Assembly: GCA_964612975.1 (NCBI GenBank)
Contig: CAZTGC010000003.1
Span: 140,724 to 204,723 of the forward strand
DNA length: 64,000 nt
From: an uncultured Dictyoglomota bacterium
GTDB taxonomy: Bacteria; Dictyoglomota; Dictyoglomia; Dictyoglomales; Dictyoglomaceae
Direction: 5' to 3'
The notes under the pieces: generated by a model
Seen by the model: the letters and a program-made list of their open reading frames with translations, nothing else
What the model was told of the DNA's origin: nothing
Databases searched by the model: none
Made by a program: the position numbers and the translations under genes
Shown here: piece after piece, positions 3,781 through 41,771 of the stretch
How positions within the stretch are numbered: position 1 is the first letter of the stretch
How the letters are laid out: each line of letters begins with the position of its first letter

Positions 3781-5249
3781 TCCTTGCTGTAGATATTGGA
3801 ACTACAAATATTAAGGCAGGAATAGTTGATGAAAATGGAAGAATTTTAAAGGTTAAAAGTAGGGAACTTCCCATCGAAAAGGATGATACAGGAAAAGTAG
3901 AACATAATCCTGAAGAAGTATTTAAGATTTTCGTATCCTTAGTTCGAGAAATAGTTTCAGAATATGAGGGTAGAATTTCCCTTCTTGTTCTTTCCTCCTA
4001 TATGTTTGGAATTCTTCCCTTGGATAAAAACTTAAAACCTTTAACAGGGATTATAACCCTTTTAGATTTAAGATCTCGGGAAACCTTTGAGGAACTCTAT
4101 AAATTAGTAAATTTTGAGGAATTATATAGGAGAACAGGATGTCCTCCCCTTTTTATATATCCCTTTTCGAAAATTTATTGGTTAAAAAGAAAGAGAAGGG
4201 AGATATATGAAAATGCAAGATATTATATAGGGTCTAAAGATTACTTTTTAATGAGACTCTTAGGAGGACTATATACTGAACCAAGTCAATCCATTTCAAC
4301 CCAATTAATGAATGTCCATACTCTTACATGGGATCCTTATCCCCTGGAATTCCTAGGAATAAAGGAGGAAAATCTTCCTAAAATTATTCCTCCTGAGGAA
4401 ATTTTAGGAAAGCTTCCTTTGGAAAGTAAGAACCTTTTGGGACTAAAGGGAGATGTTTATGTACTTACTGGGGTATACGATGGGGGAGCAGTGGGACTTG
4501 GAATAGGAGCAATGGGAGACTCTATTGGGGTTATAAATATTGGTACCACTGGAATGCTTAGAGTTACATATCCAAAACCTGTAATTGATAAAGATAAAAA
4601 TATGAGATTTCAAGCATATTTTTTATGTTCCAATAAATGGTATATTGGAGGAGCAGTAAACAATGCTGGAATAATTCTTAAATGGTTCAGGGACAATATA
4701 TTTAATCTTTCTTATGAAGATCTAACATTAGAAGCTCAAAGGGATGATAGTAAAAACTTACTCTTTCTTCCCTTCATTACAGGAGAAAGATATCCTGAAA
4801 TAGGAAATATTGCCTCAGGAGTATTTTTTGGATTAAAAAGTTTTCATAATAAAAATCATATGATAAGAGCTGGATTAGAAGGTGTAGCTTTTACATTAAA
4901 AATGGCCTTTGAAGCTTTAAAGGAAAATAATATAGAGATAAAAGAACTTAGAGCAGGAGGTGGAGGAACAAAATCTTCTCTTTGGATGAATATATTTGCC
5001 TCAGTTTTTAACATGCCCATAAAGATAACAGATTCTGAAGAAGCAGGTCTTTTAGGTTCTGCCCTTTTAGGATTTACCGCATTAAAAAAGTTTAAAACCT
5101 TAGAAGAGGCAACGGAGAAATTAGTTAAAATAAAAAATATATACCATCCAAATTCTGATTTGGTTGAAGATTATAACAAGAAGTTTGACTTCTTTAAATT
5201 TTTAGTAAGAGATTTAAAGGATGCCTTTAAGAGACACAATAACTTATAA
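3768..5249 (+). CDS. FGGY-family carbohydrate kinase (gluconokinase-like by context)
   Basis: 493 aa. N-terminal ILAVDIGTTNIKAG phosphate-1 motif and C-terminal AGGGGTKSSLW block. Overlaps the upstream gene by 13 nt. Substrate is inferred only from neighbours. Confidence 0.8.
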   Translation: MEELILAVDIGTTNIKAGIVDENGRILKVKSRELPIEKDDTGKVEHNPEEVFKIFVSLVREIVSEYEGRISLLVLSSYMFGILPLDKNLKPLTGIITLLDLRSRETFEELYKLVNFEELYRRTGCPPLFIYPFSKIYWLKRKRREIYENARYYIGSKDYFLMRLLGGLYTEPSQSISTQLMNVHTLTWDPYPLEFLGIKEENLPKIIPPEEILGKLPLESKNLLGLKGDVYVLTGVYDGGAVGLGIGAMGDSIGVINIGTTGMLRVTYPKPVIDKDKNMRFQAYFLCSNKWYIGGAVNNAGIILKWFRDNIFNLSYEDLTLEAQRDDSKNLLFLPFITGERYPEIGNIASGVFFGLKSFHNKNHMIRAGLEGVAFTLKMAFEALKENNIEIKELRAGGGGTKSSLWMNIFASVFNMPIKITDSEEAGLLGSALLGFTALKKFKTLEEATEKLVKIKNIYHPNSDLVEDYNKKFDFFKFLVRDLKDAFKRHNNL

Positions 5250-5264
5250 AGGAGGACAAAGATA

Positions 5265-6674
5265 ATGAAGGGGAATATTGGTTTGGTAGGATTAGCAGTA
5301 ATGGGACAAAATCTTGCCCTAAATATAGCAAGAAAGGGTTATTCTGTATCGGTATATAATAAAACCTCAAAAAGAACAGAAGATTTTTTAAGAGAAAAGG
5401 TAAAGGATGAAAAAATAATTCCTTGCTATGATTTAAAAAGTTTTATTGATTCCTTGGAAAAGCCAAGAAAAATAATTCTTATGGTAAAGGCTGGAAATCC
5501 CGTTGATGAGGTAATTAATAACTTTTTGCCATATTTAGATCCTGGTGATCTAATAATTGATGGTGGAAATTCCCATTATCAAGATACTTCTCGGAGAATA
5601 AAAGAACTAAGGGAAAAGAAAATTCTATATTTAGGAATGGGTGTATCAGGAGGAGAATTTGGAGCATTATATGGACCATCTTTAATGCCCGGAGGTTCCG
5701 AGGATGCATATAAAATGGTTGAAGAAATTCTTTTGAAAATCTCTGCAAAAACTGAAGATGGGCCCTGTTGCGCCTTTGTGGGAAAAGACTCTGCTGGACA
5801 TTTTGTAAAGATGGTCCACAATGGTATTGAGTATGCATACATGCAAGCTATTGCAGAAGTGTATGATATTATGAGGAAAATTTTGAATATGAACTCAAAG
5901 GAAATTGGGGATATTTTTGAGAATTGGAATAATGGAGAATTAAATTCCTTTTTGATGGAAATATCCTACAAAATCATGAGATACATGGACAAAGAAAAGG
6001 GAGTACCTCTTGTGGAGTTAATATTAGATAAGGCAGAACAAAAGGGAACAGGGAAATGGACTACCCAATCTGCATTAGACCTTGGAATTCCTACCCCTTC
6101 TTTAAATCTTGCTGTAGAAGCAAGAACCCTTTCCTATTTTAAAGATTTGAGAAGGGAACTTTCTAAGAAGTATGAGAAAAGAATCTCCAATATTTCTTTA
6201 GAAAGGGAAAGGATCCTTAAGGATTTAGAGAACTCTTTACTCTTTTCAATATTTATGGCCTTTTCTCAAGGACTTTGGTTAATAAGTTCTGCCAGTAGAG
6301 CTTTTGATTATGGGATAAATCTTTCAGAGGTACTAAGAATATGGAAGGGAGGTTGTATAATAAGGGCGAAGATTTTAAACTTTTTAAGGGAAATTATTAA
6401 TGAAAATCCTGAAAATGTAAATCTTTTAAACAATGAAAAGTCCCTTTCTTTTATTAAGGGTAAATTAGATTCAATAAAAAATATAACAAAGATTGCAAGA
6501 GACTTTAATTTGCCAACATTAGTTTTGAATTCCTCTTTAGATTATTTTTTAAGCATCACCGAAGGGGATCTTCCAGCAAATCTTATTCAGGCTCAAAGAG
6601 ATTTCTTTGGAGCCCATACCTTTGAAAGAAAAGATAAAGAAGGAATATTTCATGTCCAATGGGAAAAATTTTAA
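5265..6674 (+). CDS. gnd: 6-phosphogluconate dehydrogenase, decarboxylating
   Basis: 469 aa. GLVGLAVMGQNLALN, DGGNSHYQDT, GVSGGE.GA..GPSLMPGG, HNGIEYA.MQ and QKGTGKWT are near-universal Gnd blocks. Confidence 0.95.
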   Translation: MKGNIGLVGLAVMGQNLALNIARKGYSVSVYNKTSKRTEDFLREKVKDEKIIPCYDLKSFIDSLEKPRKIILMVKAGNPVDEVINNFLPYLDPGDLIIDGGNSHYQDTSRRIKELREKKILYLGMGVSGGEFGALYGPSLMPGGSEDAYKMVEEILLKISAKTEDGPCCAFVGKDSAGHFVKMVHNGIEYAYMQAIAEVYDIMRKILNMNSKEIGDIFENWNNGELNSFLMEISYKIMRYMDKEKGVPLVELILDKAEQKGTGKWTTQSALDLGIPTPSLNLAVEARTLSYFKDLRRELSKKYEKRISNISLERERILKDLENSLLFSIFMAFSQGLWLISSASRAFDYGINLSEVLRIWKGGCIIRAKILNFLREIINENPENVNLLNNEKSLSFIKGKLDSIKNITKIARDFNLPTLVLNSSLDYFLSITEGDLPANLIQAQRDFFGAHTFERKDKEGIFHVQWEKF

Positions 6675-9646: not shown

Positions 9647-10198
9647 ATGTACAAAGAACTAAAACATAACTTTATTTATTTACTTCACCCCCTTCCTGCT
9701 TTCTTAGTGACCAGTAGAAGCAATACAGGTAAGCAAAATGTTATGGCTGCCTCCTGGATTATTCCATTAAGTATTAACCCACCTTTAGTAGTTCTTAGTC
9801 TTAGACCCGAAAGATTTACCCTTCAACTTATTAGGGAGACTAAGGAATTTGCTATAAATATCCCTCCCTATGAGCTTTCTTCGGCGACCCTTCTATGTGG
9901 TAAGATCTCGGGAAGGGATAAGGATAAATTTCAATTGGCAAAGCTTACTCCTATACCTGGAAATAAAATTAATGCACCTTTAATAAAGGAGTGTATAGCC
10001 CATATAGAATGTGCCTTAGAGGACATTGTAGATGTAAAGGGAGATCATGTATTAGTTATAGGAAAGGTAGTCTTTGCTCAAGTTGAAGAGGATAAGTTTG
10101 ATAGAATATATAACCTTCAGAATTTTAATCCTTCAATGTATTTAGGACAAGATACCTATACCACCTGCAAGGAGGCAATAAAGATAAACGTGGGGTAA
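9647..10198 (+). CDS. flavin reductase-like (split-barrel FMN-binding) protein
   Basis: The track starts at TTG 9623, but ATG 9647 follows AGGAGG (9636-9641). The NVMAASW..P.S.NPPLVVLSLRP pattern is typical of the family. Confidence 0.8.
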   Translation: MYKELKHNFIYLLHPLPAFLVTSRSNTGKQNVMAASWIIPLSINPPLVVLSLRPERFTLQLIRETKEFAINIPPYELSSATLLCGKISGRDKDKFQLAKLTPIPGNKINAPLIKECIAHIECALEDIVDVKGDHVLVIGKVVFAQVEEDKFDRIYNLQNFNPSMYLGQDTYTTCKEAIKINVG

Positions 10199-10206
10199 GG
10201 ATAAGG

Positions 10207-11325
10207 TTGGAAAAGGTAACAAAATCTTTCTCCTTAGAAAGGGAATTTACCCTTTTTAAAAGAAAAAAAGGAAGAATTTTAGAGGATCTACCTGAGATAG
10301 AAGAAAATAAGGTTTATGCATTAAGGGATGTAGATTTATTTATCCCCGAAGGGAAAACCCTTTGTGTTATTGGCCCTTCAGGATGTGGCAAAACTACCCT
10401 TTTAAAGGTTATTGCAGGATTAGAAAGATCCGATTCTGGGAATATCTACTTTAATGACCAATTGGTAAATGATCTTCCTCCAAAGGATAGAGGAATTGGA
10501 ATGGTCTTTCAGAATTATGCTTTATATCCCCATTATGAAGCTCGAGGAAATCTTTCTTTCTATTTTTGGATAAGAAAAAAACCTGAAGAGGAAATAGATG
10601 AGAGGATAAAGGAAACTGCCAAAATTTTAGGGGTTGGATTTGAGGAACTTCTTTCCAAAAAACCCAAAATCTTATCAGGGGGAGAAAAACAAAGGGTTGC
10701 TATTGGAAGATGTATTGTAAGAAATCCCACATTAATGTTAATGGATGAGCCCTTATCTAATTTAGATGCAAAATTAAGGGTTATAACAAGAACAGAGATT
10801 AAAAAATTATTGGTGAGATTTCAGGTAACAACAATTTATGTTACCCATGATCAAAGAGAAGCACAAGCCTTAGGAGATATAATCGCAGTTATGAAACAGG
10901 GGAGAATATTACAAGTGGGAACCTATGAGGAACTTATGGAAGAACCTATGGATGCTTTTACTGCTTCCTTTATTGGAATTCCTCCTATGAATCTTTTAAA
11001 GGGAGAAGTAATAAATAACAAATTTGTTTTTAAAAATATAGAAGTTCCTATCCCCTTTAATTATAATAAGAAGGAAATAATCTTAGGTTTTCATCCTTCA
11101 AAGATAGAAATTAGTAAAGAGCCAACAAATTTAACGGGAGAAATATTCTTTATAGAGAGTCTTCCTTCAGATAAACTTCAAACTATTTATGTGGAAATGG
11201 GAAATATAAACCTAAAAATTCAAATTCCAAGGGAACCTTTATTCCGAGTGGGAGACAAAGTTTATTTGAAGCTTCCTGAAAAAATTTACTTTTTTGATCC
11301 TGACACCGAAAAAAGAATTATGTGA
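10207..11325 (+). CDS. CUT1-type sugar ABC transporter ATP-binding protein (MalK/MsmK/UgpC-like)
   Basis: 372 aa with a TTG start. Walker A GPSGCGKTT, Q-loop MVFQNYALYPH, signature LSGGEKQR, Walker B LMLMDEPLSNLD, H-loop YVTHDQ, C-terminal TOBE-like domain. There is an extra roughly 25 aa before Walker A. Confidence 0.9.
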   Translation: MEKVTKSFSLEREFTLFKRKKGRILEDLPEIEENKVYALRDVDLFIPEGKTLCVIGPSGCGKTTLLKVIAGLERSDSGNIYFNDQLVNDLPPKDRGIGMVFQNYALYPHYEARGNLSFYFWIRKKPEEEIDERIKETAKILGVGFEELLSKKPKILSGGEKQRVAIGRCIVRNPTLMLMDEPLSNLDAKLRVITRTEIKKLLVRFQVTTIYVTHDQREAQALGDIIAVMKQGRILQVGTYEELMEEPMDAFTASFIGIPPMNLLKGEVINNKFVFKNIEVPIPFNYNKKEIILGFHPSKIEISKEPTNLTGEIFFIESLPSDKLQTIYVEMGNINLKIQIPREPLFRVGDKVYLKLPEKIYFFDPDTEKRIM

Positions 11326-12295: not shown

Positions 12296-13434
12296 AAAAA
12301 ATAATTCTCATATTGGGACTAATTTTTATTACATTTATTATATTATATTTTTTAACAGATATTTTTACTCCCTCCATAGAGGCTAAAACTATTAAATTAG
12401 AAAAAAGAGATCTTCCCATAATAATATCTGCAACAGGAAATCTATATTTCATGAATAAAGTAGATATTTCTCCCCAAATATCAGGAGTTCTTTTAAAGTT
12501 AAAAGTAAAAGTAGGAGATAAGGTTAAAAGGGGAGATATACTCGCAGAGATAGACGCAAGGGAGATAAAAAAACAGATGGAAAACATAAAATTAATAATG
12601 GATACCATAAAGACACAGGAAACCCTTCAGAATCAAATGAAAATTTTAGGGTCTTTTTTTGGATTTTCCCAAAATAATCCCCAAGGTGATACAAATTCCT
12701 TTGAAGGTTTAAAAAATCTTCTGTCTTCCTATTATGAAAATCTTAAAAATATGTATGAAAACAGATTTGTTAAATCTCCAATCTCAGGAATAGTAGTAAA
12801 TATTAATATAGAAGAAGGGCAAATTGTTAAAGAGCAATCCCAATTTAATTTAAATCTCCAAAATTTAAGTCCTTTAAACATTTTTTCCCTTTTAAATCCT
12901 TTCTCATCTTCTCCTTCAAATTCATTAATGACAATTGTAGATACAGATTCCTTGGTGGCTGACATTAGAGTTGATGAATCCAATGTGCTTAAAATAAAAG
13001 AGGGACAGAAAGCAGAAGTTAAAGTAGATGCTTTGGGAGAGAAGATATGGGAGGGAAGGGTTAAAAGTATAGCCTTCTCTCCCTCCCTAAGTAAAGATGG
13101 AAGCTATGGATATAATGTTAAAGTATCTGTTCCATCCTTGGGGGATAAAGTAAAAGAGGGAATGTCCGTTTCCACAAATATTCATGTGGGTATTAAGAAA
13201 AATGCCTTTGTTATTCCTATGAATTCTGTTGTCTTTAAAGAAGGAAAAAACTTTGTCTTTATTGTAAATGACAAACATGCATTAGAAAAAGAAGTCTTTT
13301 TAGGAGATATTTATGGAGCTATGATTGAAATTGTAAAGGGATTAAAGGAAAATGATATAGTTATTCTATCTCCATCAAATAAGATAAAGAATGGGAGTAG
13401 GGTAAAGATAATTGAGGATTTTAGAGAGTTTTAA
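12292..13434 (+). CDS. periplasmic adaptor subunit (HlyD/MacA-like membrane fusion protein)
   Basis: 380 aa. N-terminal TM anchor, lipoyl-like VKVGDKVKRGDILAEID hairpin, coiled-coil middle, beta-barrel C-terminus. 4-nt overlap with the upstream gene. Confidence 0.8.
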   Translation: MKKIILILGLIFITFIILYFLTDIFTPSIEAKTIKLEKRDLPIIISATGNLYFMNKVDISPQISGVLLKLKVKVGDKVKRGDILAEIDAREIKKQMENIKLIMDTIKTQETLQNQMKILGSFFGFSQNNPQGDTNSFEGLKNLLSSYYENLKNMYENRFVKSPISGIVVNINIEEGQIVKEQSQFNLNLQNLSPLNIFSLLNPFSSSPSNSLMTIVDTDSLVADIRVDESNVLKIKEGQKAEVKVDALGEKIWEGRVKSIAFSPSLSKDGSYGYNVKVSVPSLGDKVKEGMSVSTNIHVGIKKNAFVIPMNSVVFKEGKNFVFIVNDKHALEKEVFLGDIYGAMIEIVKGLKENDIVILSPSNKIKNGSRVKIIEDFREF

Positions 13435-14644
13435 ATCTTCTTTTTATTATTTAAAAGTTAGCAAACTTAGATCTTTCCTTACTATTCTTGGAATAATAAT
13501 TGGAGTTTTTACAGTAATCCTTTTAATTTCTATTGGACAAGGGGCAAAAAATAGAGTAACTCAGGTAATGCAGGAATTAGGAGGTAATACCCTTTTAATA
13601 TTTCCCTCTAATATAGAAACTAATGGAGATTTTAATACCTTAAGGGAGGAAGCCCAGAGGAGAAGAAACAGAGGTATTCCCCAATTATTTAATTACAGTG
13701 ATCTTCTTTATTTAAGAAGAATCTTTAGGGATGAAATTTTAATATCTTCCATGGCTAATTTCTCGCCATCTGTAAAATATAAATTTGTAGAAATAAATGC
13801 CCAAGTGATGGGAACAGATAATGAAGGACTTATAATATCAAAGGAAGGATTTCTATCTGGAAGATTTTTTACAGAAACTGAAATAAAAAACAGGGAAAAG
13901 GTATGTATTGTGGGTCCAAAGATAGCAAGAGAGATTGCAGAAAATTATGAGCAAGCAGTAAATAAATTCTTAGATATTGGAGGACAAAATTATAGAATAA
14001 TTGGAGTTTTAAGAGAAAGGGGATTTACTTCCTCAAGTTATGAAGATCAAGATAGAAGAATAATAATTCCTATCACAACCCTTTTTTCTATTAAAGGAGA
14101 TCAAAATTTAAATATAATTGCTGTCCAAGTGAAAAACCCTGAGGCTTTAGAAATTTATCGCTATAAGTTAATATTCGCATTGAAGCAAAGGAGAGGAAAA
14201 ACCAATTTTGTTGTTGCAAGACAGGAGGATCTTCTTTCTGCTATGAAGGAGATATTAAATATTTTGACCCTTACTTTGGCTGGAATTGCAGGTGTATCCC
14301 TTGTAGTGGGTGGAATTGGAATAATGAATATCATGTTGGTTTCTGTTATGGAGAGAATAAAGGAGATAGGTATAAGAAAGGCTGTAGGAGCAAAAAGGCG
14401 AGATATATTAATCCAATTTCTTGTGGAATCTTCTATTCTTAGTATTTTTGGGGGAATAATTGGGATAATATTAGCCTTAATTTCTGGCAAAATTATTGTT
14501 AATTTTGGCATACCTTTTTCTATAAATTTCAATATATTAATCTTAGGATTTTTATTTTCCCTCTCCATAGGATTAATATTTGGAGTTTGGCCTGCCGTAA
14601 GGGCTGCAAGTTTAGATCCTATCCAAGCTTTAAGATCTGAATAA
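13412..14644 (+). CDS. MacB/LolCE-type ABC transporter permease (MacB_PCD + FtsX)
   Basis: 410 aa with a TTG start. N-terminal KLRSFLTILGIIIGV, a large external domain and a C-terminal FtsX four-helix region ending PA.RAA.LDPI.ALR.E. Confidence 0.85.
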   Translation: MRILESFKSSFYYLKVSKLRSFLTILGIIIGVFTVILLISIGQGAKNRVTQVMQELGGNTLLIFPSNIETNGDFNTLREEAQRRRNRGIPQLFNYSDLLYLRRIFRDEILISSMANFSPSVKYKFVEINAQVMGTDNEGLIISKEGFLSGRFFTETEIKNREKVCIVGPKIAREIAENYEQAVNKFLDIGGQNYRIIGVLRERGFTSSSYEDQDRRIIIPITTLFSIKGDQNLNIIAVQVKNPEALEIYRYKLIFALKQRRGKTNFVVARQEDLLSAMKEILNILTLTLAGIAGVSLVVGGIGIMNIMLVSVMERIKEIGIRKAVGAKRRDILIQFLVESSILSIFGGIIGIILALISGKIIVNFGIPFSINFNILILGFLFSLSIGLIFGVWPAVRAASLDPIQALRSE

Positions 14645-33976: not shown

Positions 33977-35294
33977 TTAGAATTTTGCAGATCCAGAAGC
34001 AATAAATCTAAGATAGGATAAATCAGGAGAAATATTTTGAATTTGCTCCCCAAGGACTGCAACATCAAGAGAGAATCCAAAAAGATTCAATCCAGCACCA
34101 ACAGATAAAGTTAATCCCCTTACTGCAAGTTCTGCTGACTTCGTTGGATCAAGCTCTTCTAATCTTATATTCCCGTAGGCTCCTGCCCTTAATGCAAGAA
34201 TGGGAAGAACCCAAAATTCTACTCCTGCACGTAGGGTTCCATATCTCCAGGTTTCTGGCTTGTTCCAATTCTCCTGACTAAAATTATAACTTAGATCAAA
34301 GTTTTCTAAATCTAATGCTAATTTAATCATACCCAAATCTATCGCAGCACCAAAATTAAAGAAGGAAGGAAGCTTAATGCCAGAATATACTTCCTGAGGT
34401 GGATTATAGGTCCACCAAGCATCCCAGTGGCCCCATACAAAGTCATCATGCCACATATAGTCTCTTATATAATTTATATTACTATAGGCATTTCTATAAA
34501 CTAATCCTACCTTTAAAAGAGCAAGATTTAGAATTGCCCCTAAATCCACAGTAAATCCATCAATACTGGCCCAATCGTAGGAATGAAATTGAGAATCCCA
34601 AGTATGATAGTTATCTTTCTCAGGATCATTTTCATACTCGCTTCCCGGAATAAATCTTCCACTTCCAAACCATATCCCATCAACCTTTCTTGATACTTCC
34701 CCTTTAATGTAGGTTAAGTTGACCCCAAGAGCTATTGGCCCAAATTTTGTTCCTGTTCCTAAGGAGAAGGTATCAAGCTTTGAGACATCTGTTACATCAG
34801 AGAACCAATCAAACTTCATAGGGTAAATATCGGGTGCATAGCTTGTCCAATACCCACCATCAGCCCTTGCCACAACTATAGGTGGTATAAAGGGTTTTTT
34901 ATATGCAACAGAAAGATTTGATAGAGCTAATGCTGCATAAAGGGGCTTGAAATTAAATTTATACTCATACTTAGGAGTTCCGCCTTCCCAGCCAACAAAT
35001 TCTTTACTTACTTCACCTAAAGTTAATACCGTTAAGTTTATATTTCTTACATATGCAAGCCCTGCAGGGTTATATTCCACAGAGGATGCATCATTGGCAG
35101 GCAAGGGCAGTTCCTGCTCCACCCATGCCAAGGAATCTTGCACTTCCTCCACTCATCCAGGGAAGGAAAAAGAAAAGATTAATAGGATATTTCTCTCCAG
35201 GTACAGGACGTTCTTCTATTTGAGCAAAGGATATTGTGAGAAGAAGAACAAGGGAAAGGATGCTTACCGTTAGAATCTTTAAAATCTTACTCAT
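33977..35294 (-). pseudogene. FadL/PorV-like outer-membrane beta-barrel gene interrupted by a 1-nt frameshift near 35099
   Basis: ORF 35294-35091 encodes signal peptide + ARFLGMGGAGTALA then CQ*. ORF 35152-33977 continues in the +1 frame with ANDASSVEYNPAGLAYV and ends in the aromatic SGSAKF. Removing one base at GCC-T-GCC restores ...GTALAANDASSVEYNPAGLA..., parallel to the paralog at 37823-38671. Confidence 0.7.
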
Positions 35295-37822: not shown

Positions 37823-38671
37823 TTAGAAGCTTGCTGATAAGCTTATTATATGTTGATTGGTTAAATTTTTTGTATATAAAAGGGCATAATCTAAGTTGAA
37901 GTTTGCAAAGCTTAATCCTACTCCAAAGGTTAATCCTTCCTTTGCTCCATTATATCCCCCCCTTATTGCTAAAATAGGAAGGGGATTTATCTCAGAACCA
38001 ATATGAACTCTATTTAAAAATGTGGGCTTTTCCAATAAAGATATATCTACAACAATTTTTAAAGGTACTACTAAATCTAGTTTTAATAAAGTTCCCACCA
38101 CCACATCTTTTCTTTCTACACTTTCCACAGTACCTGTATTCCATCTTAAAAAGTTTATGGGATTATACAAGGCAATACCAAAGCTTAGGTTAGAATTTAC
38201 TAAATAAATTGCCCCAATATCTACCCCAAATCCTTGAGCAGAACCTGTATCTAATGTGGTCATGTAAAAATATCCCGTTGCTCCTACACTAAGATTGGGC
38301 ATAACATTAGTAGCTATACTTACCTGAAAGGCATTCTCTGAAAAGGGAAAAAGTAGTTCTTCGGAACTTACACTTTTAGTGGATAATCCCAATCCTAAGG
38401 AAAAAGATTCCAAGGGTAAAACTCCTCCAAAGAATTCCACCCTCGTAAAACTTTCTGGCATCTCCAAGTGATTAAAACTAAGGGTTTTTTTATCTATAAA
38501 AGATAATCCCGCTGGATTATATATCAAACTTCCCCAATCATCAGAGAGGGCAACATAGGCTCCTCCTAATCCTCCTGCCCTTGCATTTAAAATCATTGGG
38601 GTAAAAGATGCAAAGCATGGGGTTATGATAAATAAACATATAATTAAGCATATAAAAATTATTTTCCTCAT
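37823..38671 (-). CDS. FadL/PorV/PorQ-like outer-membrane beta-barrel protein
   Basis: 282 aa. Signal peptide, ARAGGLGGAYVALSDDWGSLIYNPAGLSF N-terminal motif, alternating beta-strand pattern, C-terminal SLSASF aromatic end. Paralog of 33977-35294. Confidence 0.6.
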   Translation of the reverse strand: MRKIIFICLIICLFIITPCFASFTPMILNARAGGLGGAYVALSDDWGSLIYNPAGLSFIDKKTLSFNHLEMPESFTRVEFFGGVLPLESFSLGLGLSTKSVSSEELLFPFSENAFQVSIATNVMPNLSVGATGYFYMTTLDTGSAQGFGVDIGAIYLVNSNLSFGIALYNPINFLRWNTGTVESVERKDVVVGTLLKLDLVVPLKIVVDISLLEKPTFLNRVHIGSEINPLPILAIRGGYNGAKEGLTFGVGLSFANFNLDYALLYTKNLTNQHIISLSASF

Positions 38672-38700
38672 CTATTATGCCTCCTTTTAAAAAATTTAAG

Positions 38701-38724
38701 TTTAGGGGGGATTTCCCCCCTAAA
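38701..38724 (-). terminator. strong intercistronic hairpin between the protease and barrel genes
   Basis: TTTAGGGGGG-attt-CCCCCCTAAA immediately after the protease stop codon (38727-38729). Confidence 0.55.
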
Positions 38725-38726
38725 AG

Positions 38727-41700
38727 TTATTTCAAGATCCCAATGAACCTATTTATTCTTACCTCACCCTGATGAGAAGTTGAAACAAGCTGGAATAGAT
38801 AGAGTCCATTGGGTAAGTAAAGTCCTTTCCAATTTACCCCTTCCCATATTACTTCGTAATTTCCAGCAGAAAGATTCCCAAGATCCCTTTCGTATACCTT
38901 TTCTCCTGCAAGGTTATATACTATAAACCTTACCTTTGCATCTTGAGAAATATTAAAGTATATCTTCGCTGGTCCTTCTTTAGGATTAAAGGATTTTGTG
39001 AATTTTGTAACATTTAAAAGGGAAAGGGGTTGTCCCAAATTAATAATTGTTGTTGCAGAAATATATCTAGAATTATTTAATTCATCCTTTGCTGTTGCCT
39101 CAATAATATATTTTCCATTGGGAAGTAAAGCCCCACTTTCATCCTTTCCATTCCATGTATAATTAAAACTTCCATTGTTAACCCTTTGATTTTCAACTAT
39201 AGTCCTTACAAGATTATTCTTTTGTCCATTAACGGTGTTATAAACTTTAATTGTTAGATATGCATAACCTGAATCATCAAATACTGATCCACTTATATTA
39301 CAACTTCCAGTATTAGGATTGAAGGAGGATGAAACTGTTAGAGTTAAAGTTGGTGTATCAACTAATAAAGCCCTTGCTTTTCTTAAAAGTATTTCATTTA
39401 TAGAAATATCTACCCCCTCAAGCCCAAAGGAAAAGTATACTACCGCATATTTTTTTACTGGATCCACATATCTTAATCCTGCAGTTCCAGAGGATGCTAT
39501 TACTTTATTTACAATAGATGGTGCCTTTTGTTCCTTTATCTTTTCAGGAAGTTTTATCTCAGGAATAGGAAGGGATACTCCTAAAGGATTGTAAACTAAT
39601 AGGGCTTGTGCTCCCTCTAAAGGATCAATCTCATCTGGATAAAATTGATTTTGGGCAGAATTCTCTGTATTTAAATTAAAGGTTAATCCCTCAAAAGTTG
39701 TTCCACTAACACCCCTTATGGAATAAATTTCTGTATTATCTTGAACAAAACTTGCCTTGAGGTATCCTTTATAGAATGTTTCACTTATGTATCCTTTCGA
39801 ATATCCCCATCCTAAATCTTGGCTTGTAATAAATAATTTACCACCATTATTTAAATAGCTCATTATTTGATTTTGTACAGAAGAATAATAGATTGCTCCC
39901 CAATCTCCGGCCCAAAGAACCCAGTCATAATTTAACATGTAACCTACTGAGGGTATCGCATTATCTTTAAATACATCAATAATGTTATAGCCAATTCCTT
40001 CATCTACAAAGGCATTCTCTATAAAAGGTGCTATTCCAAATTCTCCTCCATCGTCGGAGATAATTAAAGCTTCTATGGTAGCTGGAGTCGTGAAGGATTT
40101 CTGATACCAAGGAGAATCTCCATTGGCATTACTTGCCCTTATCCTCGTATAATAGGTAGTTCCAAGGAAAAGAGGAGCATTTAATAGAGGGCGATATTCT
40201 GTATCTTGAGTCTTAATATCTATTACTAAATTACTAAAGTTTGGATCTTGTGCAACCTGTAAATTGTAGGAAGTAGCATAAGGAACTGGTGTCCATTTAA
40301 ATAATGGTCTTATAGTTAAAGGATTTTGGGAGTACCAACCCATATGATAAATAAAGGAAGGTTGTGCAGGCACTTCCGTTGATTTTACATATATATCGCA
40401 AGTAATATTATTTCCAGAAATAGCAATATTTCTTACAGCGACTGCTGTGGGAATTTCAAAATAAGCTTTGCTATTGGGAGTACTATTTTTATCAAAAGTT
40501 CGATTATTAGTAGATCCTGGATAAGGATGTCCCGTGTTGCCCGATGAAAGTCTTTTTTCTAATTCCCAAAGTCCATTTGCCTGTTCCAAAGCAACTAAAT
40601 AGTGTCTTGATGGATCAAGTCCTGGATACCATTCATAATCATTTTGAGTTTTCCTCATTTTCTCATCCACATGATAGATGAGAAGACCCTCTCCCATTAA
40701 ATAACTATCAAAGCCAATTTTTCTCCTATTCTCCAATAGGAAATATTCATCTCCAATAACTCCATCGGTCCAAAGCATATAAATTACTGGCTCTATCTCC
40801 ACAGGAGGTATAGAGACATTAATCAAATTATTTTCTGGGACTATTGGAGTTACCCATCCTAATTTAATCTTACACCAGGCGTCAAAATGAGAAGGAGAAC
40901 CTCCCATGGAATATCCCGAGGGTCCTTGTGGTCCATTCCAAGATCCGGCTGCCATTAAGCTCCATCTTCCAAGTCCCAAAGAAGAATAATCTCTATCATA
41001 AAGATCGGGAAGTTGTCCAAAGGAATGTCCCATTTCATGAACAAATACCCCTACCGTTGAGGGAATAATTTTACCTTTATCCTCCATGTATTCTGGTTCA
41101 ATAGAGTATCTTATAAGAAATAATTTTCCACCAATATTTACATAAACTGTGGATGCATGGGACCAAATATCATTTACATCTCCTGTCCATTCTGCTCCTT
41201 CTCCACTATGAATTACAAATACTACATCATAATTTCTTAAATCATATCCAGAATTTACTGCATGTTGTAAAACCTCTTTAACTAATGTAAAAACTCCACC
41301 ATCAAATCCATGATTTCCATCATTTATATAGTAGGTATAAGTATTTTGAGCAGTATACCAAGGAAGAATAGTTGCAGTTACATCAAATTTATTATAGGAG
41401 TTTTCTTTATAAAATTCCTTTACACTTCCTACATTGTAGGGATTAATATTACTCCAATTTGCCCCTTCACTATTAAAGAGTATTTCAAAATAATCTGAAG
41501 GAATATTGGCTTGTTTTGGCTTATCAGCAAATTCTACAGGGATTACTATTGCAGATCCTGTACCAGTTGTTTTTTCAATAACTCCATATATTTTTGCTTC
41601 CTTTGGAATACTTACAGGAGTAATTTCAGGTAAAGTTGGAAGCTTTATCTTTTTCTCTAAAAGTCTTTCATGGGGTGGCATAATTTTTACTTTAGTTAAG

Positions 41701-41771
41701 GGAAAAGTTTCTGCAAGGGTAAAAGAGAATAGGAGGATTAAGAATGCTAAAAACCCAAAACCTTTCTTCAT
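38727..41771 (-). CDS. secreted M6 (immune inhibitor A-like) metalloprotease with FN3, FlgD-Ig-like and C-terminal sorting-like domains
   Basis: 1014 aa. Signal peptide; VFVHEMGHSFGQLPDLYD, the M6 HExxHxxGxxD motif; an FN3-like segment (KWTPVPYATSYNLQVA...); a FlgD-Ig-like segment (YTWNGKDESGALLPNGKYII); and a terminal segment VRFIVYNLAGEKVYERDLGNLSAGNYEVIWEG...LPNGLYLFQLVS...RFIGILK. Confidence 0.85.
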   Translation of the reverse strand: MKKGFGFLAFLILLFSFTLAETFPLTKVKIMPPHERLLEKKIKLPTLPEITPVSIPKEAKIYGVIEKTTGTGSAIVIPVEFADKPKQANIPSDYFEILFNSEGANWSNINPYNVGSVKEFYKENSYNKFDVTATILPWYTAQNTYTYYINDGNHGFDGGVFTLVKEVLQHAVNSGYDLRNYDVVFVIHSGEGAEWTGDVNDIWSHASTVYVNIGGKLFLIRYSIEPEYMEDKGKIIPSTVGVFVHEMGHSFGQLPDLYDRDYSSLGLGRWSLMAAGSWNGPQGPSGYSMGGSPSHFDAWCKIKLGWVTPIVPENNLINVSIPPVEIEPVIYMLWTDGVIGDEYFLLENRRKIGFDSYLMGEGLLIYHVDEKMRKTQNDYEWYPGLDPSRHYLVALEQANGLWELEKRLSSGNTGHPYPGSTNNRTFDKNSTPNSKAYFEIPTAVAVRNIAISGNNITCDIYVKSTEVPAQPSFIYHMGWYSQNPLTIRPLFKWTPVPYATSYNLQVAQDPNFSNLVIDIKTQDTEYRPLLNAPLFLGTTYYTRIRASNANGDSPWYQKSFTTPATIEALIISDDGGEFGIAPFIENAFVDEGIGYNIIDVFKDNAIPSVGYMLNYDWVLWAGDWGAIYYSSVQNQIMSYLNNGGKLFITSQDLGWGYSKGYISETFYKGYLKASFVQDNTEIYSIRGVSGTTFEGLTFNLNTENSAQNQFYPDEIDPLEGAQALLVYNPLGVSLPIPEIKLPEKIKEQKAPSIVNKVIASSGTAGLRYVDPVKKYAVVYFSFGLEGVDISINEILLRKARALLVDTPTLTLTVSSSFNPNTGSCNISGSVFDDSGYAYLTIKVYNTVNGQKNNLVRTIVENQRVNNGSFNYTWNGKDESGALLPNGKYIIEATAKDELNNSRYISATTIINLGQPLSLLNVTKFTKSFNPKEGPAKIYFNISQDAKVRFIVYNLAGEKVYERDLGNLSAGNYEVIWEGVNWKGLYLPNGLYLFQLVSTSHQGEVRINRFIGILK

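Follow-up and report, generated by a model that had tools for sequence, protein, structure and literature searches.

Organization of the protease-barrel locus

The window examined here is a 64,000-nucleotide (64-kb) stretch of DNA from an uncultured Dictyoglomaceae bacterium, a relative of Dictyoglomus from a hot spring. On its minus strand lie two co-directional genes, the first encoding a 1014-residue M6 metalloprotease (positions 38727-41771) and the next, directly downstream, a 282-residue predicted 14-strand β-barrel of the PorV/PorQ family (37823-38671); 55 nt separate the protease stop codon from the barrel start codon. The protease gene is defined by its open reading frame (ORF), by matches to TIGR03296 and PF05547 and by its Dictyoglomaceae orthologues, and the barrel gene by NF033709, an AlphaFold2 (AF2) model, Foldseek and a profile search of the PDB. 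A first-pass annotation of the DNA letters had pointed out this adjacency; every sequence feature that it described for the pair is present where it was placed, and its guess at a Dictyoglomus-like genome was right, the nearest named relatives of both proteins being Dictyoglomaceae metagenome-assembled genomes (MAGs). On the evidence presented below, the two genes probably constitute a cognate cassette of a cargo with a C-terminal domain (CTD) and an anchor barrel, built on the same logic as porU-porV, PorZ-PorQ and SprB-SprF in the T9SS (type IX secretion system).

The M6 protease and its C-terminal tail

The protease starts with a Sec signal peptide (MKKGFGFLAFLILLFSFTLA, 41712-41771, minus strand, read directly from the sequence), and its M6 catalytic domain, of the immune inhibitor A-like kind, spans residues 77-367 (40671-41543, minus strand). 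Family membership is evident from the scores of 170.9 bits with TIGR03296 (cut-off 110.8) and 69.6 bits with PF05547 Peptidase_M6 (cut-off 22). The zinc motif HEMGHSFGQLPD (residues 245-256; 41025-41039 and just downstream, minus strand) holds HEMGH at residues 245-249 and the downstream Asp of an HExxHxxGxxD site, and because this motif is intact the protease is predicted to be active. Orthologues in Dictyoglomaceae share 66-92% identity with it. A middle region of about 400 residues has no family match. Residues 565-800 (39372-40079; ALIISDDGGEF...GGKLFITSQDLGW...) are retained by every Dictyoglomaceae orthologue and by the Anoxybacter protein, and matched no Pfam, NCBIfam or PDB sequence family.

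The whole protease scores 73 bits with PF13860 FlgD_ig (cut-off 27), and Pfam places two such domains in it. The first is internal (residues 816-897; 39081-39326, minus strand) and is also detected by our local tail hidden Markov model (HMM) at E 7e-08. The second covers residues 926-1003, stopping 11 residues short of the C-terminus, and together with the end ...RFIGILK it forms the tail (residues 926-1014; 38730-38996, minus strand), which we propose as the docking element. Taken alone, the tail scores 44 bits with FlgD_ig against the cut-off of 27, and this is the sole curated model that it passes. Its score with TIGR04183 is 15.4 (cut-off 23), with PF18962 Por_Secre_tail 15.1 for the tail and 10.8 for the whole protein (cut-off 27), and with CHU_C (PF13585) 20.9 (cut-off 27); TIGR04131 gives no match. 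The tail is divergent, with FNPKEG in place of the PNPFNP of the family, and a large-database search with a 96-residue tail query returned a single match.

When a tail profile built from Dictyoglomaceae and Anoxybacter was compared with the tails of M6 proteases from the Fibrobacteres-Chlorobi-Bacteroidetes (FCB) group, which carry PF18962 together with PF13860, hhalign gave a probability of 99.15% and E 4e-19. Among PDB sequences, FlgD is the best match of the tail (3OSV, E 2e-7), and the PorU CTD is the only T9SS entry matched (6ZA2 residues 1080-1144, E 1.4e-3). For the tail, AF2 gives a β-sandwich with a predicted local distance difference test score (pLDDT) of 84.6; Foldseek ranks PorU 6ZA2 first for this model (E 4.3e-5), in a near-tie with FlgD 3OSV, and PorZ lower. 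The tail is thus clearly a divergent FlgD_ig-type domain homologous to T9SS CTDs. The first-pass annotation had likened it to type A CTDs and FlgD-Ig domains: the FlgD_ig match and the homology to the FCB-group CTDs bear this out, but the cut-offs of TIGR04183, PF18962 and CHU_C are all missed.

A minimal barrel of the PorV/PorQ branch

The barrel has a signal peptide, a ARAGGLGGAYVALSDD...YNPAGL motif and an ...LSASF terminus with the terminal Phe of a β-signal. Its NPAG motif (N52-P53-A54-G55; 38507-38518, minus strand), a hallmark of the FadL superfamily, lies in the N-terminal plug; in a 41-sequence alignment (A1), three of its residues (N52, P53 and G55) never vary and A54 hardly does. 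The AF2 model, made with 41 homologues, shows 14 strands and the N-terminal plug (pLDDT 89.6, predicted template modelling score 0.83), and all of its loops are 11 residues or shorter. Foldseek places F. johnsoniae PorV first among PDB structures (6H3I_F, E 1.8e-10, template modelling (TM) score 0.73), with TodX, FadL, CymD and TbuX ranked below it.

With curated models, the barrel falls narrowly under the cut-off of the PorV_fam model NF033709 (81.5 bits, E 8e-23, against 90) and far under those of the equivalogs PorV NF033710 (27.8 against 250) and PorQ NF033711 (45.4 against 220). The PorP/SprF model TIGR03519 gives no match at E <= 1, and 12.6 bits for the related Anoxybacter barrel described below. 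The identity of the barrel is 66-70% to Dictyoglomaceae MAG proteins and 52% to the D. thermophilum protein, an orthologue that carries the UniRef name 'PorV/PorQ family protein'. An exhaustive HMMER search with the barrel returned 5011 representative clusters at E <= 1e-3; below E 1e-30 the Dictyoglomaceae cluster stands alone. The family is thus very large, and the Dictyoglomaceae barrel forms an isolated and divergent branch in it.

Fold, plug and NPA motif would also suit a FadL-type channel that takes up hydrophobic products of the enzyme (peptides or lipids), so that the two genes would be linked by metabolism, with no docking between the proteins. The barrel does match the FadL/OMPP1/TodX model PF03349 (Toluene_X) weakly, at 19.1 bits against a cut-off of 29.7 and over the N-terminal 40 residues only. 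The sequence profiles, by contrast, clearly favour PorV over FadL and TodX: a broad-alignment barrel profile matches PorV in the PDB at E 1.5e-33, and a narrow profile containing no FCB-group PorV/PorQ sequences still reaches PorV at E 5e-14, against E >= 0.27 for FadL/TodX. The first-pass annotation had spoken of a PorV/FadL-like barrel. Within the FadL superfamily, sequence profile and predicted fold clearly place the protein in the PorV/PorQ branch, and its nearest solved relative is PorV, not FadL.

A BamG-like or UPF0164 (Treponema FadL-like) identity was set aside for its low scores. A role of the barrel as a subunit associated with the β-barrel assembly machinery (BAM), BamG-like or otherwise concerned with envelope biogenesis, is hardly credible: there is a weak match to the BamG model NF053685 (18 bits), and chain F of the P. 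gingivalis BAM complex (9HJM) is found by Foldseek at E 2.6e-6, but these scores are far under those of PorV, and loci in other genomes that hold several cargo-linked paralogs (L037, L040, L024) do not suit a housekeeping subunit.

Conservation of the pair and of the intercistronic hairpin

The M6 gene followed by the barrel gene is kept in every Dictyoglomaceae locus examined (the window, L012, L013, L002, L004 and the related D. thermophilum-type loci L005 and L006), and the flanking genes differ from one to another. In L002 (Dictyoglomus sp. NZ13-RE01), three barrel paralogs occur within 9 kb (4912-5970, 9992-10855 and 12940-13776). The middle one alone is paired with a tail protein; the outer two (352 and 278 residues) have no tail neighbour, like a second, frameshifted paralog in the window (described below).

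Between the two genes, starting 3 nt past the protease stop codon, lies a GC hairpin (TTTAGGGGGGAAATCCCCCCTAAA, 38701-38724, minus strand) with a 10-bp stem of G6/C6 type followed by a T-rich tract, resembling a terminator or attenuator. The ribosome-binding site of the barrel gene, AAGGAGG (38680-38686, minus strand), was read from the same intergenic sequence. The hairpin structure is preserved, with compensatory changes, in L012, L013 and L002, and a near-identical G6/C6 hairpin stands at the equivalent site of the Anoxybacter locus L009; it is absent from the D. thermophilum-type locus L004. The hairpin probably sets the expression ratio of cargo to barrel.

The best protease relative from another phylum, an M6/FlgD_ig protein of 1494 residues, comes from the cultured Halanaerobiales bacterium Anoxybacter fermentans and has 33% identity over 96% of the query. 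The gene directly after it encodes a 282-residue barrel, 28% identical to the window barrel (E 2e-23) and scoring 81.5 bits with PorV_fam. The tail of the Anoxybacter M6 protein passes the type B model TIGR04131 (43.5 against 35). The Anoxybacter cassette (L009, CP016379, 6074-15917) is larger than that of the window and encodes, in order, an S8 protease that includes a CarboxypepD_reg domain, the M6 protein, in which FlgD_ig occurs four times, the barrel, and an 803-residue protein with an N-terminal FlgD_ig domain. In a Zixibacteria chromosome, the homologous barrel gene (417 residues) lies directly upstream of an M6/CTD gene and ends 13 bp before it. The gene after an Armatimonadia M6/FlgD_ig homologue is PFL-like and no barrel, and the contig stops there; beside two distant barrel homologues (P0017 and P0057), no tail gene is present. 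The M6-linked barrels were also considered as a single cross-phylum clade and this was rejected, as the barrels group by lineage and that of Anoxybacter is nearest to cargo-linked barrels with non-M6 partners.

Conservation of this kind bears on the simplest explanation, namely that the adjacency is an inherited gene order with no functional coupling, the tail being a generic Ig-like spacer or stabiliser and the barrel an ordinary porin. The FlgD_ig fold is widespread, and the internal copy at residues 816-897 illustrates its use as a spacer. Against this, the pair is maintained while its flanks reshuffle, it recurs in another phylum, and an 18-fold enrichment of tails beside barrels extends over many phyla and unrelated passengers (see the next section). 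A mere inherited order is strongly disfavoured by these observations, and we regard it as very improbable.

Tail and barrel genes pair across phyla

Species-representative genomes were scanned with a narrow barrel alignment (A2), which gave 80 loci from many phyla, and these were scored with local HMMs for the barrel, the tail and the M6 domain. The scan relied on one peptide pattern and for that reason missed some Dictyoglomus species; the frequencies below describe a selection-biased sample of loci, with 89 evaluable barrels. A directly upstream same-strand ORF ending in a tail is found for 52 of the 89 barrels, and a tail ORF on either side for 60 of 89. The background frequency among other ORFs of at least 250 residues in the same loci is 32/448 (7%). 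The enrichment upstream of barrels corresponds to an odds ratio of 18 (Fisher p = 2e-26), and the upstream position is preferred to the downstream one (p = 4e-9). Start/stop overlaps of 4 bp are common among the pairs. The adjacency pointed out in the first-pass annotation is conserved in Dictyoglomaceae and Anoxybacter, and it is an instance of a general rule, a tail gene followed by a barrel gene.

The passengers range from 144 to 3213 residues and contain FG-GAP, S8 subtilase, CBM30/CBM11, BNR, PKD or M6 domains; given this variety, the tail is the only element that they share. This also weighs against the uptake channel raised above: the linked partners have the tail in common and no enzymatic activity, and many are adhesin-like (FG-GAP, PKD, CBM). 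The strict order, with the tail gene upstream, and the 4-bp overlaps are also better suited to a protein-protein partnership, and overall an uptake channel appears improbable.

Of 53 tails of such passengers, 44 match TIGR04183; the PorU model is matched, in its C-terminal part, by 43 and the PorZ model by 40. Cargo-linked barrels of Elusimicrobiota, Poribacteria, a Bacillota MAG and Bacteroidetes pass PorV_fam (114-223 bits), and none of the cargo-linked barrels scored passes the PorV or PorQ equivalog cut-offs. The possibility that these are ordinary porU-porV pairs was considered and rejected, because the linked cargos are not PorU. With cargos other than PorU and barrels that fail the equivalog cut-offs, the pairs therefore define a third class, the cargo-linked PorV/PorQ-family barrels. 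The firm non-FCB cases are the Dictyoglomaceae and the Anoxybacter isolate, and MAG labels need caution. One locus labelled 'Thaumarchaeota archaeon' (L052) shares its layout, with matching coordinates and scores, with the Neomarinimicrobiota locus L047, and may be a mis-binned bacterial contig.

Several loci (L037, L040, L024 and L063) contain two or three consecutive tail-cargo/barrel pairs, which suggests that the module was duplicated in tandem as a whole and that each cargo has its private barrel. Many barrels of the family (P0029, L035:3390-4661, L078:2120-3394, L047, L061, L067, L079, L091 and others) have C-terminal extensions of 100-700 residues past the β-signal, FlgD_ig domains among them, and some extended barrels have TPR or LpoB/CsgG-like domains according to precomputed Pfam assignments. 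These extensions are presumably periplasmic modules, recalling the PorP-PorE partnership. The fusions of a barrel with FlgD_ig (P0029, L035 and L078) were considered as decisive Rosetta-stone evidence and rejected as such, as the added domain lies past the β-signal, on the periplasmic side, and has no terminal K/R motif.

Proposed mechanism and the T9SS question

Based on the results presented above, the two proteins have parts homologous to those of T9SS pairs, predicted folds of the corresponding kind, an operonic linkage that is conserved, and an arrangement that extends to many other passengers. If they form a cognate cassette, the M6 protease would be exported by Sec, and its last ~85 residues would fold as a FlgD_ig/CTD-type β-sandwich that serves as the recognition element for the co-encoded barrel. 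BAM would insert the 14-strand PorV/PorQ-family barrel into the outer membrane, and the barrel would then hold the protease there non-covalently, with the tail retained and not cleaved. We infer that tail and barrel dock physically, that the protease is exposed at the surface and that it keeps its tail, and attachment of the protease to the surface by its barrel is proposed by analogy with the known pairs.

Several points weigh against a cognate cassette. The tail and the barrel both score under the curated T9SS-model cut-offs, and about a third of the related barrels have no detectable tail neighbour. In the P0029 fusion, the FlgD_ig domain past the β-signal would be periplasmic, which leaves open docking on the periplasmic face. 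The long extracellular loops with which PorV binds CTDs extend into SprA (PMC10994853); the window barrel has no long loops, and the docking mode must therefore differ. Finally, a plugged 14-strand barrel cannot export a protein of ~110 kDa, so the protease would have to cross the outer membrane by some other route.

In another reading, Dictyoglomota would have a complete T9SS-like machinery, so far unrecognised, with the genes for a SprA-like translocon and a motor elsewhere in the genome. The pair would be an accessory of it and in no way T9SS-independent, and the barrel would act as a specialised carrier that gathers this cargo at the translocon, just as in Bacteroidota. In favour of this, the barrel alone could not pass a 110-kDa protein, most tails of the wider set match TIGR04183, and cargo-linked barrels of this PorV_fam type are also found in the Bacteroidetes loci L070 and L081. 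On the other hand, T9SS genes are absent outside the FCB phyla according to reviews (PMC11285876, PMC11205867). No T9SS core gene (SprA/Sov, PorK/L/M/N, PorT, PorW or PorU) was seen in the 64-kb window or in the ~20-kb Dictyoglomaceae flanks, which vary among genomes. Our literature search gave no paper tying Dictyoglomus to T9SS, and nothing relevant on FlgD_ig with PorV, on Elusimicrobia with T9SS or on TXSScan with Dictyoglomi. For Dictyoglomota as a whole, the absence of T9SS is taken from the literature statement (PMC11285876). A hidden machinery of this kind is in our opinion unlikely.

A wider proposal goes beyond the cognate cassette itself. The pair would then represent a self-contained, translocon-independent two-gene display module, made of any passenger with a FlgD_ig-type tail and a private minimal PorV-like barrel. 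Such a module would be widespread in non-FCB diderms (Dictyoglomota and Halanaerobiales and, by MAG labels, Elusimicrobiota, Poribacteria, Bipolaricaulota, Thermotogota and others), either ancestral to the carrier/anchor part of T9SS or a distinct, undescribed way to the cell surface. We advance this tentatively, as a possibility that is more doubtful than the cassette. Cargo-linked barrels are also present in Bacteroidetes, which presumably bear a T9SS, and for this reason we can only infer that the module is independent of a translocon; the Bacteroidetes copies may well use T9SS.

The first-pass interpretation is thus partly supported: tail and barrel are homologous to T9SS parts, and strict membership is doubtful, both lying under the curated T9SS-model cut-offs. 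The first-pass annotation had held that a purely generic tail, a barrel from an unrelated outer-membrane protein family or an unconserved adjacency would undo its proposal, and none of these was found outright.

A second barrel paralog in the window

A second, larger barrel paralog is encoded at 33977-35294 on the minus strand. It is frameshifted, as recognised by comparison with its L012 orthologue, and it is not linked to a cargo. The ORF listed for it is 33977-35152; its true start is at 35294, where a ribosome-binding site and a signal peptide are found. The frame is broken by a 4-nt tandem duplication, TGCCTGCC (minus strand, 35096-35103), between the GMGGAG and NPAGL motifs. The intact orthologue, of 436 residues (L012:10259-11569), belongs to an 88%-identical relative. 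The paralog has weak matches to the barrel HMM and to NF033709, and no tail-bearing neighbour. This reflects either recent pseudogenization or an error of assembly. The first-pass annotation had mentioned this gene alongside the pair; being frameshifted and without cargo, it adds nothing to the argument.

Significance

In the T9SS field, CTD signals and their PorV/PorQ/PorP carriers are treated as machine parts confined to Bacteroidota and FCB relatives. In Dictyoglomota and a cultured diderm Firmicute, the signal-plus-carrier half forms a compact operon whose passengers are interchangeable, and MAG labels extend this to many further non-FCB phyla. What is new is a CTD-carrier/anchor pair in an unexpected phylum, with a minimal barrel. 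If SprA and the Por/Gld motor are truly missing, recognition of CTDs by barrels would predate T9SS and be more general than it, with implications for how that system arose, and the cargo would need another way to reach the outer membrane or stay at it. In practical terms, the module is a candidate for a minimal cassette, of thermophile origin, for surface display. For the thousands of 'hypothetical' barrels in the 5011 representative clusters, it also offers an annotation rule: check the tail of the upstream gene.

Comparison with known systems

The closest known parallels are the PorU-PorV and PorZ-PorQ pairs of P. gingivalis. There, porU lies 75 bp upstream of porV, PorV anchors PorU and PorQ anchors PorZ, and only PorU and PorZ keep their CTD (PMC5445135, PMC7463736). 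The window pair likewise combines an enzyme bearing a C-terminal Ig-like CTD with a 14-strand PorV/PorQ-family barrel, and here too the enzyme would sit at the surface and retain its tail. As in porU-porV, the cargo gene is directly upstream of the barrel gene; among T9SS structures, the window tail is nearest the PorU CTD and the window barrel nearest PorV. The cargo differs, being an M6 metalloprotease and not a C25 sortase or a β-propeller protein. The barrel is ~100 residues shorter, has minimal loops and fails the equivalog cut-offs. Unlike P. gingivalis, Dictyoglomota are a phylum from which neither SprA nor a Por/Gld motor is known.

For cargo with a type B CTD, genetic linkage to a cognate PorP/SprF barrel is documented, and the barrel binds this cargo as its carrier and anchor (PMC9143113, PMC12618676). 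The window resembles SprB-SprF and PG1035-PorP (Flavobacterium, Porphyromonas) in having a linked, dedicated barrel, one per cargo or small cargo set. It differs from them in that the window barrel has no TIGR03519 match and the tail has no TIGR04131 match, with a CHU_C score of 20.9 bits.

With FCB type A cargo, such as the M6 proteases of Zixibacteria, KSB1 and Melioribacteraceae, the window protease shares a homologous M6 domain (~40% identity) and a homologous FlgD_ig tail, which has the pattern PNP...IY.L.G..V...WDG.d..G..v.sGvY...K.vllK. Type A cargo is thought to share the general carrier PorV and to have its CTD removed by PorU (PMC12618676, PMC7463736), whereas the window cargo is adjoined by a private barrel, and its tail lacks the PNP motif (FNPKEG) and scores under the cut-offs.

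FadL/TodX channels have in common with the window barrel the 14 strands, the N-terminal plug and the NPA motif (Foldseek TM scores of 0.56-0.71). The window barrel is, however, ~140 residues shorter, its profile gives E >= 0.27 with these channels against 5e-14 with PorV, and its genomic partner is a tail-bearing secreted protein and not a catabolic operon.

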